From NCBI RefSeq assembly GCF_036507355.1, contig NZ_AP027877.1: a stretch of 64,000 nt of DNA. The stretch is one strand, 5' to 3'. Below the pieces are notes generated by a model. It saw only the letters and a list, made by a program, of their open reading frames with translations. It was not told the DNA's origin and searched no databases. The position numbers were made by a program, and so were the translations under genes. Below, in pieces: positions 54,393-54,545 of this stretch; the first letter of the stretch is position 1; every line of letters begins with the position of its first letter. This stretch comes from Escherichia coli (GTDB lineage: Bacteria; Pseudomonadota; Gammaproteobacteria; Enterobacterales; Enterobacteriaceae).

Positions 54393-54545
54393 CGGTAGGC
54401 CGGATAAGGCGTTTACGCCGCATCCGGCAACGATGCCAGATGCCTGATGCGACGCTTGCGCGTCTTATCAGGCCTACAAATTCTCGCGCATCCGGCAACG
54501 GTGCCAAATACCTGATGCGACGCTTACCGCGTCTTATCAGGCCTC
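54393..54545. repeat. REP/BIME cluster (at least three REP units)
   Basis: Repeated GCCGGATGCGGCG / GCCTGATGCGACGCT / CGTCTTATCAGGCCTAC motifs in alternating orientation; boundaries approximate. Confidence 0.7.

Follow-up and report, generated by a model that had tools for sequence, protein, structure and literature searches.

REP palindromes between yjdM and yjdN and at two phn junctions of an Escherichia coli chromosome segment

The REP clusters of the window and the yjdM-yjdN array

A stretch of 64,000 nucleotides of Escherichia coli contig NZ_AP027877.1 (assembly GCF_036507355.1), hereafter the window, was analysed for its repetitive extragenic palindromic (REP) sequences, with emphasis on the cluster at 54393-54545. 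This cluster lies in the spacer between yjdM (phnA) and yjdN (phnB), the latter encoding a glyoxalase/VOC-fold protein. The window is an E. coli-type chromosome segment collinear with MG1655 ~4,316,341-4,379,992 in reverse orientation, the collinearity extending through all clusters, and it carries in order frd/ampC, groESL, aspA, pheU, cad, dcu, mel, adi, basRS, proP, rdcAB, yjdM, yjdN and phnC-phnL. The window departs structurally from MG1655 in two places, namely 5627-6394, where 768 bp are inserted, and the yjdM-yjdN spacer, which is shorter. The identity to MG1655 was 98.6-98.9% outside phn (the other 54 kb) and 96.65% in the phn segment (54487-64000). The best-matching strains were found to vary by region, O157:H7 reaching up to 99.4% in adi-mel and ~97% in phn, which indicates a mosaic, recombinant history of the window.

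The original prediction had placed six REP clusters in the window and named a REP consensus scan as the check on them. The consensus was detected at all six sites, with ends within ~3 nt of those predicted, and the set was extended by a seventh, solitary REP at 48730-48760 that had been missed. The tail motif CTTATCMGRYCTAC (up to 1 mismatch) gave 13 matches in the window against 0.08 expected from shuffles and the head motif GYCKGATGCGRCG gave 11 against 0.88; neither count was equalled by any shuffle, and the matches were confined to the six clusters and the site at 48730-48760. Membership was judged by an imperfect palindrome of ~29-37 nt, GCC(G/T)GATGCG...CTTATC(C/A)GGCCTAC, with a GTAG foot; 13 units are full or nearly full, one is a degenerate Z1 without the GTAG foot (35935-35961) and one is truncated. 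When 14 units were aligned in a common orientation, the consensus GCCGGATGCG.CGC...CG.CTTATCCGGCCTAC was obtained, and 96.5% of the hairpin pair cells were standard as compared with 30-47% in slid controls. Compensatory changes were observed at 5 of 13 hairpin pairs, for example, G-C to U-A between Y and Z types. All the units are extragenic, located between the stop and start codons of annotated genes, and of high copy number, a 351-bp query holding the 54393-54545 cluster matching a median of at least 35 places per E. coli genome. The six loci and the seventh are ordinary E. coli REP palindromes organised as bacterial interspersed mosaic elements (BIMEs), a long-known class of non-coding, GC-rich imperfect hairpins of ~35 nt, with seven sites in this 64-kb window. 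The MG1655 RefSeq feature table (CDS, RNA, and pseudogene features) has no repeat_region entries for REPs, and no RAYT gene was seen in the window.

The cluster between yjdM and yjdN is a BIME-2 tandem array of Y, Z2, truncated Y, and Z2 units in opposite orientations with constant short linkers (Table 1). The first Y REP begins 14 nt past the yjdM stop codon, and a second 13-nt linker separates the truncated Y from the second Z2. The 32-bp gap in the truncated Y was seen in alignments to MG1655 and strain PS10-3, the latter having the same deletion, and the direct repeat spacing in the array is 68 nt as against ~100. According to PMC4550694, from which the name of the linker ("l" motif) is also taken, the yjdM-yjdN spacer of K-12 contains REP325, an array of six Y-l-Z2 repeats that gives rise to naRNA1-6. 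The array of the window shares with REP325 the flanking genes, the Y-linker-Z2 unit, and the orientation relative to yjdM transcription, and it differs in having one full unit and one with the 32-bp deletion (1.7 units) in a spacer of 227 bp, against six near-identical ~100-bp units in 657 bp. Judging from these alignments, the cluster is a contracted allele of the REP325/naRNA4 locus. REP325 is already known and among the best-studied REP clusters; it is a model REP whose function is debated between nucleoid organiser and local regulator in the 3′ untranslated region, and the element at 54393-54545 is its natural short allele.

The copy number of this array varied from one to six units in complete E. 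coli genomes (E166 has one, PA2 two, and PS10-3 two plus a 32-bp-deleted unit). The commonest record span among the sampled matches was that of a single unit, most E. coli genomes sampled having one, and the exact allele of the window was found in one aligned piece in 0 of 5426 complete E. coli genomes. Such variation among strains speaks against any role for which the six units of K-12 would be required. In most other species, the yjdM-yjdN spacer holds at least one REP-like hairpin, its minimum length being 79-80 bp. The original prediction had put the elements between cistrons of the phn operon, which is right for 57016-57105 and 62339-62425; the array at 54393-54545 lies upstream of phnC-P and not inside it.

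The Rfam model RF02564 (naRNA4) is in effect a Y-Z2 REP pair. It matched above its gathering threshold of 59.5 bits at 54398-54474 (+) with 102.1 bits over 77/77 model positions and at 57020-57100 (-) with 69.1 bits; sub-threshold matches were found at three of the remaining four clusters and none, even sub-threshold, at 35863-35965. The match at 57020-57100 was considered as a small RNA gene and rejected because it is antisense to the phn mRNA and a generic REP pair. The model therefore recognises generic REP pairs and is not locus-specific.

A few other features of the yjdM-yjdN region were noted. IS1397, which targets BIMEs, is annotated in the yjdM-yjdN stretch of E. coli GPEC1446 and SCU-316, with a record span ~1.5 kb longer than the query. 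A block of ~40 nt just 5′ of the yjdN ATG (54568-54607, ACTACACTTAA..GGCTTCTCTTACCTGAGGTAA) is conserved in many genera, in contrast to the turnover seen in the remainder of the spacer; it has no Rfam match, and CTTACC and GGTAAG around the Shine-Dalgarno region of yjdN form a small inverted repeat in many species. Directly 3′ of the yjdN stop, there is a GC-rich hairpin without a T run (CGGGAGG-CCCGC-CCTCCCG, 55053-55075), at which the yjdMN transcript possibly ends before the phnC promoter region.

Table 1. REP units, flanking genes, and REP-derived reading frames of the window (CDS, coding sequence)
Feature	Position	Strand	Basis or context
yjdM (phnA) CDS	54045..54380	+	Pfam YjdM, Zn_Ribbon_YjdM; homologous E. 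coli loci; stop TGA 54378-54380
Y-type REP, first unit of BIME-2 array	54395..54428	-	Exact head and tail consensus; hairpin -21.3 kcal/mol; in Rfam naRNA4 match
13-nt head-to-head linker ("l" motif), Y to Z2	54429..54441	.	Aligns with constant linker of K-12 REP325 units
Z2-type REP	54442..54477	+	Exact consensus; hairpin -21.4 kcal/mol; Rfam naRNA4 model positions 45-77
Inter-unit spacer and truncated Y REP	54478..54496	-	Head half CGCATCCGGC (54487-54496) alone remains after 32-bp deletion
Second Z2-type REP, slightly degenerate, last unit before yjdN leader	54510..54546	+	Motif scans; sub-threshold Rfam match, 40 bits
yjdN (phnB) true CDS	54608..55051	+	Pfam; cross-species alignments; PGAP 444 bp in other strains
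REP (GTCGGATGCGACGC... variant), first half of phnD-phnE inverted pair	57017..57052	-	Motif scans; identical in MG1655; 3 nt past phnD stop
Y-type REP, second half of phnD-phnE pair	57070..57103	+	Motif scans; ends 15 nt before phnE ATG (57119)
Y-type REP, phnK-phnL	62342..62375	+	Motif scans; 6 nt past phnK stop codon
REP (GTCGGATGCGACGC... variant), phnK-phnL	62389..62424	-	Motif scans; ends 21 nt before phnL ATG (62446)
BIME-1-like: Z1 5402-5430 (+), 36-nt linker, Y 5467-5500 (-)	5402..5500	.	Downstream of epmB
BIME-1-like: Y 7480-7513 (+), 36-nt linker with IHF-like ATTCAATCAGTTG, Z1 7550-7578 (-)	7480..7578	.	Between convergent yjeJ and yjeI
Degenerate BIME-1-like: Y 35867-35900 (+), linker, decayed Z1 35935-35961 (-)	35867..35961	.	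Between convergent yjdF and melB
Solitary degenerate REP GCCTGATGTGACGCTGTCTTATCAGACCAAC	48730..48760	-	Motif scans; between proP stop and pmrR
Spurious 93-aa reading frame through stop-free REP frame	54226..54507	-	Antisense to yjdM 3′ end; no Pfam family above threshold
Spurious 144-aa reading frame bridged by REP pair	62181..62615	-	Antisense to phnK 3′ end and phnL 5′ end; no Pfam match

REP or BoxC at the phnD-phnE and phnK-phnL junctions

The phn operon of the window has inverted REP pairs at the phnD-phnE and phnK-phnL junctions. The phnD-phnE pair (folded over 57005-57125) forms one long hairpin at -51.5 kcal/mol (z -4.2) and the phnK-phnL pair (folded over 62327-62452) folds at -55.6 kcal/mol (z -6.6); in the minimum-free-energy folds of both, one REP is paired with the other, which is the architecture of REPINs. 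The comparison of these intra-operon REPs across strains, which had been named as a check, was made in the ~5387 of the 5426 E. coli genomes in which both junctions are present. The phnD-phnE junction carried a REP pair in 3874 (72%) and a BoxC repeat in 1506 (28%), together 5380; at phnK-phnL, the numbers were 4839 (90%) and 545 (10%), together 5384. Either a REP pair or BoxC thus occupies both junctions in nearly every genome, and empty alleles are essentially absent in E. coli.

In the minority alleles, nearly the whole interval between the stop codon and the Shine-Dalgarno sequence, with the REP pair, is replaced by another palindromic repeat that matches the BoxC/PIT/TMECO consensus CCCTCTCCCTTGAGGGAGAGGGTTAGGGTGAGGG, a family of intrastrand-triplex repeats (Holder et al, 2015, PMC4666352). 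These BoxC forms range from full inverted pairs down to remnants of 50-60 nt, in which the CCCTCTCCC...GGGAGAGGG hairpin is always kept. At least three haplotypes were seen for the two junctions (phnD-phnE/phnK-phnL), namely REP/REP in the window and K-12, BoxC/REP in 120899, and BoxC/BoxC in LR-28. The window itself has no match to the BoxC motif with up to 3 mismatches.

The junctions were further compared in 80 loci from other Enterobacteriaceae, which were found with PhnH and include no Escherichia or Shigella loci. Apart from phnD-phnE, phnK-phnL, a few phnC-phnD junctions of Citrobacter and a few phnE-phnF spacers, the phn junctions overlap or do not exceed 24 bp. The phnD-phnE spacer measured 49-251 bp and always held a structured element in 52 species from 12 named enterobacterial genera, this being REP-like in 21, BoxC in 29, and another element in 2, with no empty site. 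It folded better than all 100 shuffles in 49 of the 52 species (median z -5.2). The phnK-phnL junction was REP-like in 34 of 75 species, BoxC in 2, otherwise occupied in 10, and empty in 29, the empty form being typically a 9-bp GAGGCCAAC spacer; empty and occupied sites are found within the same genera (Citrobacter, Enterobacter, and Salmonella). A comparison of the two junctions for empty sites (0 of 52 and 29 of 75) gave Fisher p = 1.5e-8 without phylogenetic correction. Because the occupancy of phnD-phnE persists despite the turnover of repeat families, these comparisons argue that a hairpin after phnD, the binding-protein gene, is probably under selection, in parallel with the classical REPs of malE-malF and hisJ-hisQ. 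At phnK-phnL, a tolerated insertion hot spot would explain the pattern just as well.

Two further observations concern these loci. The phn proteins of Pseudocitrobacter vendiensis and P. faecalis share 95-100% identity with those of the window, although YjdN is only 78% identical, and BoxC alleles almost the same as in the E. coli BoxC-allele strains are present at their junctions; this suggests that the phn operon was recently exchanged horizontally. In addition, the phnC-phnD junction, normally of 23 bp, measures 49-155 bp in several Citrobacter species, and these inserts are related to each other through a repeated ...CCAGGCTGGCAAGTGAAATAGCCTGGAAC... segment and belong to neither the REP nor the BoxC family.

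Likely role of the hairpins in phn expression

The deletion of REP325 in K-12 has been reported to drop the yjdM/yjdN mRNA ratio from 35 to ~1, with a log2 fold change of -1.74 for yjdM and +3.36 for yjdN, and to change growth (Harris et al, 2026, bioRxiv 10.64898/2026.03.23.713779). In the same study, the REP325 transcripts appeared as a ladder of truncated products, and the read-through was partly Rho-dependent, as judged by its partial sensitivity to the Rho inhibitor bicyclomycin. A role of the array as a stabiliser and attenuator in the 3′ untranslated region of yjdM fits the window because the sense RNA of the yjdM-yjdN spacer folds strongly (-89.8 kcal/mol, z -6.7 against shuffles), no intrinsic terminator-like site was found in 54380-54610, where the REP hairpins have no T tract, and the + strand from the array to yjdN has no promoter-like site, with a good one located upstream of yjdM. 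The following sequence of events is the most likely one. In mRNA initiated at the yjdM promoter, the hairpins that follow the yjdM cistron at its 3′ end would block 3′-to-5′ exonucleases and so stabilise the yjdM mRNA, and they would also cause a partial and partly Rho-dependent attenuation, with less transcript passing into yjdN. Stabilisation and attenuation have been shown at this locus in K-12 and, by homology, most likely operate at the short array of the window. For the inverted pairs at phnD-phnE and phnK-phnL, the same polarity of upstream over downstream gene is most likely, as backed by their comparative conservation; at the first of these junctions, PhnD, the periplasmic binding protein, would then be favoured over PhnE, the permease.

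The phnC-P operon reportedly has its own promoter (Metcalf & Wanner, 1993), and no match to the Pho-box consensus within 3 mismatches was found upstream of phnC. For the separate promoter, we rely on Harris et al (bioRxiv 10.64898/2026.03.23.713779) and not on a scan made here. The original prediction had proposed that the intercistronic REPs of phn modulate mRNA stability. This agrees with the published REP325 deletion and with the comparative data at phnD-phnE, but termination or attenuation is equally part of the published mechanism, and a function at phnK-phnL is doubtful.

Several points weigh against this interpretation. REPs within 15 nt of a stop codon are reported by Liang, Rudd and Deutscher (2015) to lower the translation of the upstream gene, an effect that would act in the opposite direction, and all three co-directional clusters of the window, lying 3-14 nt from a stop codon, fit that distance. 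With 1.7 units here and six in K-12, the array may not have an effect of equal size in both. In 29 of 75 species, nothing occupies the phnK-phnL site, where the element may be no more than tolerated. Furthermore, the genomes and species compared are not phylogenetically independent, and the occupancy counts overstate the support. REP effects were found to be strongly context-dependent, and mRNA half-lives were not uniformly lengthened (Harris et al, bioRxiv 10.64898/2026.03.23.713779).

A more general proposal, which we make tentatively and hold at somewhat less than even confidence, is that phnD-phnE, and less strictly yjdM-yjdN, needs a stable hairpin directly past the upstream stop and that this need may be filled by whichever family is at hand, be it a REP pair, BoxC/TMECO, or a unique hairpin. 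If true, BoxC would be the functional equivalent of REP at the RNA level in tuning the ratio of binding protein to permease, and the REP and BoxC alleles at both junctions would be natural regulatory variants in E. coli. Two phn slots filled with either of two unrelated palindromic families offer a natural experiment on the interchangeability of REP and BoxC as expression-tuning hairpins. Literature searches found nothing specific on REPs in phn or on the replacement of REP by BoxC, and the allelic alternation together with the never-empty phnD-phnE slot, which we did not find described in the searchable literature, is a modest lead.

The elements could instead be selfish or neutral mobile DNA, that is REPINs moved by RAYT, tolerated in the gaps between stop codon and ribosome-binding site with no effect on the neighbouring genes. 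The empty phnK-phnL sites and the mixed states within three genera agree with this, as do the variable number of yjdM-yjdN units and the landing of IS1397 in that BIME-bearing spacer in some strains; the two unrelated repeat families at the same sites could mark an insertion hot spot, and the pairs at 57017-57103 and 62342-62424 have the inverted-doublet architecture of REPINs. We nevertheless consider it unlikely, because the phnD-phnE site was occupied in all 52 species and in ~5380 of 5387 E. coli genomes, a hairpin is kept even in remnants of 50 nt, and the REP325 deletion alters yjdM and yjdN expression and growth in K-12. An origin by transposition and a later co-option are compatible with each other.

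Less probable still, and in our view improbable, is that the elements act at the level of DNA or chromosome, with BIME-2 as a gyrase site, BIME-1 as a site for integration host factor (IHF), and naRNA4 with HU bridging cruciform DNA so that the nucleoid is condensed. The binding of gyrase to BIME-2 is established, and the cluster at 54393-54545 matches naRNA4 of Rfam in full length. HU binding and nucleoid decondensation after REP325 deletion were reported by Qian et al (2015, PMC4550694). This nucleoid model, with naRNA4 as a discrete 77-nt RNA that would bind HU, is disputed in K-12 by Harris et al (2026, bioRxiv 10.64898/2026.03.23.713779), who found that the nucleoid volume was unchanged, that no stable HU-DNA-naRNA4 ternary complex was formed, that no REP-REP contacts were seen in Hi-C, and that there were ~1-2 transcripts per cell. 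The length of the array is not conserved, with one unit in most sampled strains, and RF02564, in matching the generic phnD-phnE pair, says nothing specific of the locus. The IHF consensus WATCAANNNNTTR has a match with one mismatch in the 7514-7549 linker, against a background of ~1 per kb at up to 1 mismatch, and none within 1 mismatch in the other two BIME-1-like linkers. The explanation by RNA hairpins, taken as a whole with REP units in BIMEs, a short REP325 allele, a stabiliser and attenuator mechanism and, as described below, artefactual reading frames, is held with high confidence.

Reading frames through REP units, the remaining clusters, and known systems

Every cluster was found to have at least one frame without stop codons, and in five of the six there is one on each strand, in line with the original prediction that REPs lack stop codons in some frames. 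The predicted open reading frames (ORFs) that inflate the N-termini of yjdN, phnE, and phnL were also recovered at 54440..55051(+), 57056..57898(+), and 62332..63126(+); these mechanical ORFs lengthen the three genes by 56, 21, and 38 codons, respectively. The true starts are ATG 54608 (yjdN), 57119 (phnE), and 62446 (phnL), because a Shine-Dalgarno motif can be read in the DNA ahead of each, the gene lengths given by the NCBI Prokaryotic Genome Annotation Pipeline (PGAP) in other strains are 444, 780, and 681 bp, the protein alignments across the 80 loci begin at residue 1-3 of the shorter proteins, and the "extension" DNA is replaced by unrelated BoxC in 28% (phnE) and 10% (phnL) of E. coli genomes. 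The recurring peptide attributed to these extensions is present in that of phnL and in ORF 54226..54507(-), but the yjdN extension has only a related ...RLIRPT and that of phnE reads a different REP frame. The two free-standing ORFs exist as predicted, but they run mostly antisense to yjdM and to phnK/phnL, with REPs merely bridging them. The long ORFs and N-terminal extensions are artefacts of stop-free REP reading frames. It is barely credible that they are real coding sequence (REP-encoded peptides or longer isoforms), and a coding status was rejected: the ORFs do have ATG, GTG, or TTG starts and the K-12 reference itself starts phnE1 upstream of the PGAP start, but the alignments, PGAP lengths of phnE and phnL, Shine-Dalgarno sequences, and BoxC replacement all point to the downstream ATGs, no Pfam family was matched and the antisense ORFs overlap real genes.

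The K-12 case shows that the REP-extension artefact occurs even in a curated annotation. The phnE1 pseudogene of the MG1655 reference starts at an ATG at 4323279-4323281 (window 57067-57069) that abuts the Y REP head, adding 17 codons read from the BIME, and the PGAP start of phnE in other strains is 51 nt downstream of it; in the window, phnE is intact (780 bp). That stop-free REP frames inflate ORFs is a routine but useful caution for annotation.

Among the other sites, the REP at 48730-48760 lies immediately next to the Rfam match for STnc630 (48563-48728, -), within which the small ORF pmrR is found. The insertion at 5627-6394 in the epmB-yjeJ spacer, ~125 bp downstream of the BIME at 5402-5500, encodes an IS1 transposase fragment (Pfam DDE_Tnp_IS1, E = 2e-78), and its 768 bp is the length of a complete IS1. 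A Guanidine-II (mini-ykkC) riboswitch aptamer at 3136-3182 (-) upstream of gdx (sugE), with 50.4 bits in Rfam, is expected and already known.

The elements of the window can be set beside several known systems in addition to REP325. The three clusters at 5402-5500, 7480-7578, and 35867-35961 resemble BIME-1/RIP/RIB in having one Y and one Z1 unit, tail to tail, across a linker of 34-36 nt, and they differ in that an IHF-like match is present in one of the three linkers and the Z1 at 35935-35961 is decayed. The phnD-phnE and phnK-phnL pairs resemble REPINs, which are mobilised by RAYT transposases (Bertels & Rainey, 2011, PMC3116915; Nunvar, 2010, PMC2817692; Ton-Hoang, 2012, PMC3333891), as inverted doublets predicted to form one long hairpin, with a GTAG foot on each unit; the halves of each phn doublet are, however, different REP subtypes. 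BoxC occupies exactly the same intercistronic slots as the REP pairs of the window, in single, paired, or hairpin-remnant forms, but belongs to an unrelated family of the form CCCTCTCCC-loop-GGGAGAGGG-loop-GGGTGAGGG. Lastly, the intercistronic REPs of ABC-transporter operons reportedly include those of malE-malF and hisJ-hisQ (Higgins, Newbury and Stern, 1982-1988), and phnD-phnE has the same arrangement of a binding-protein gene, REP hairpins just past its stop, and a membrane-permease gene; it differs from these in that 28% of E. coli genomes, most Enterobacter, and all Kluyvera species examined have BoxC there instead.

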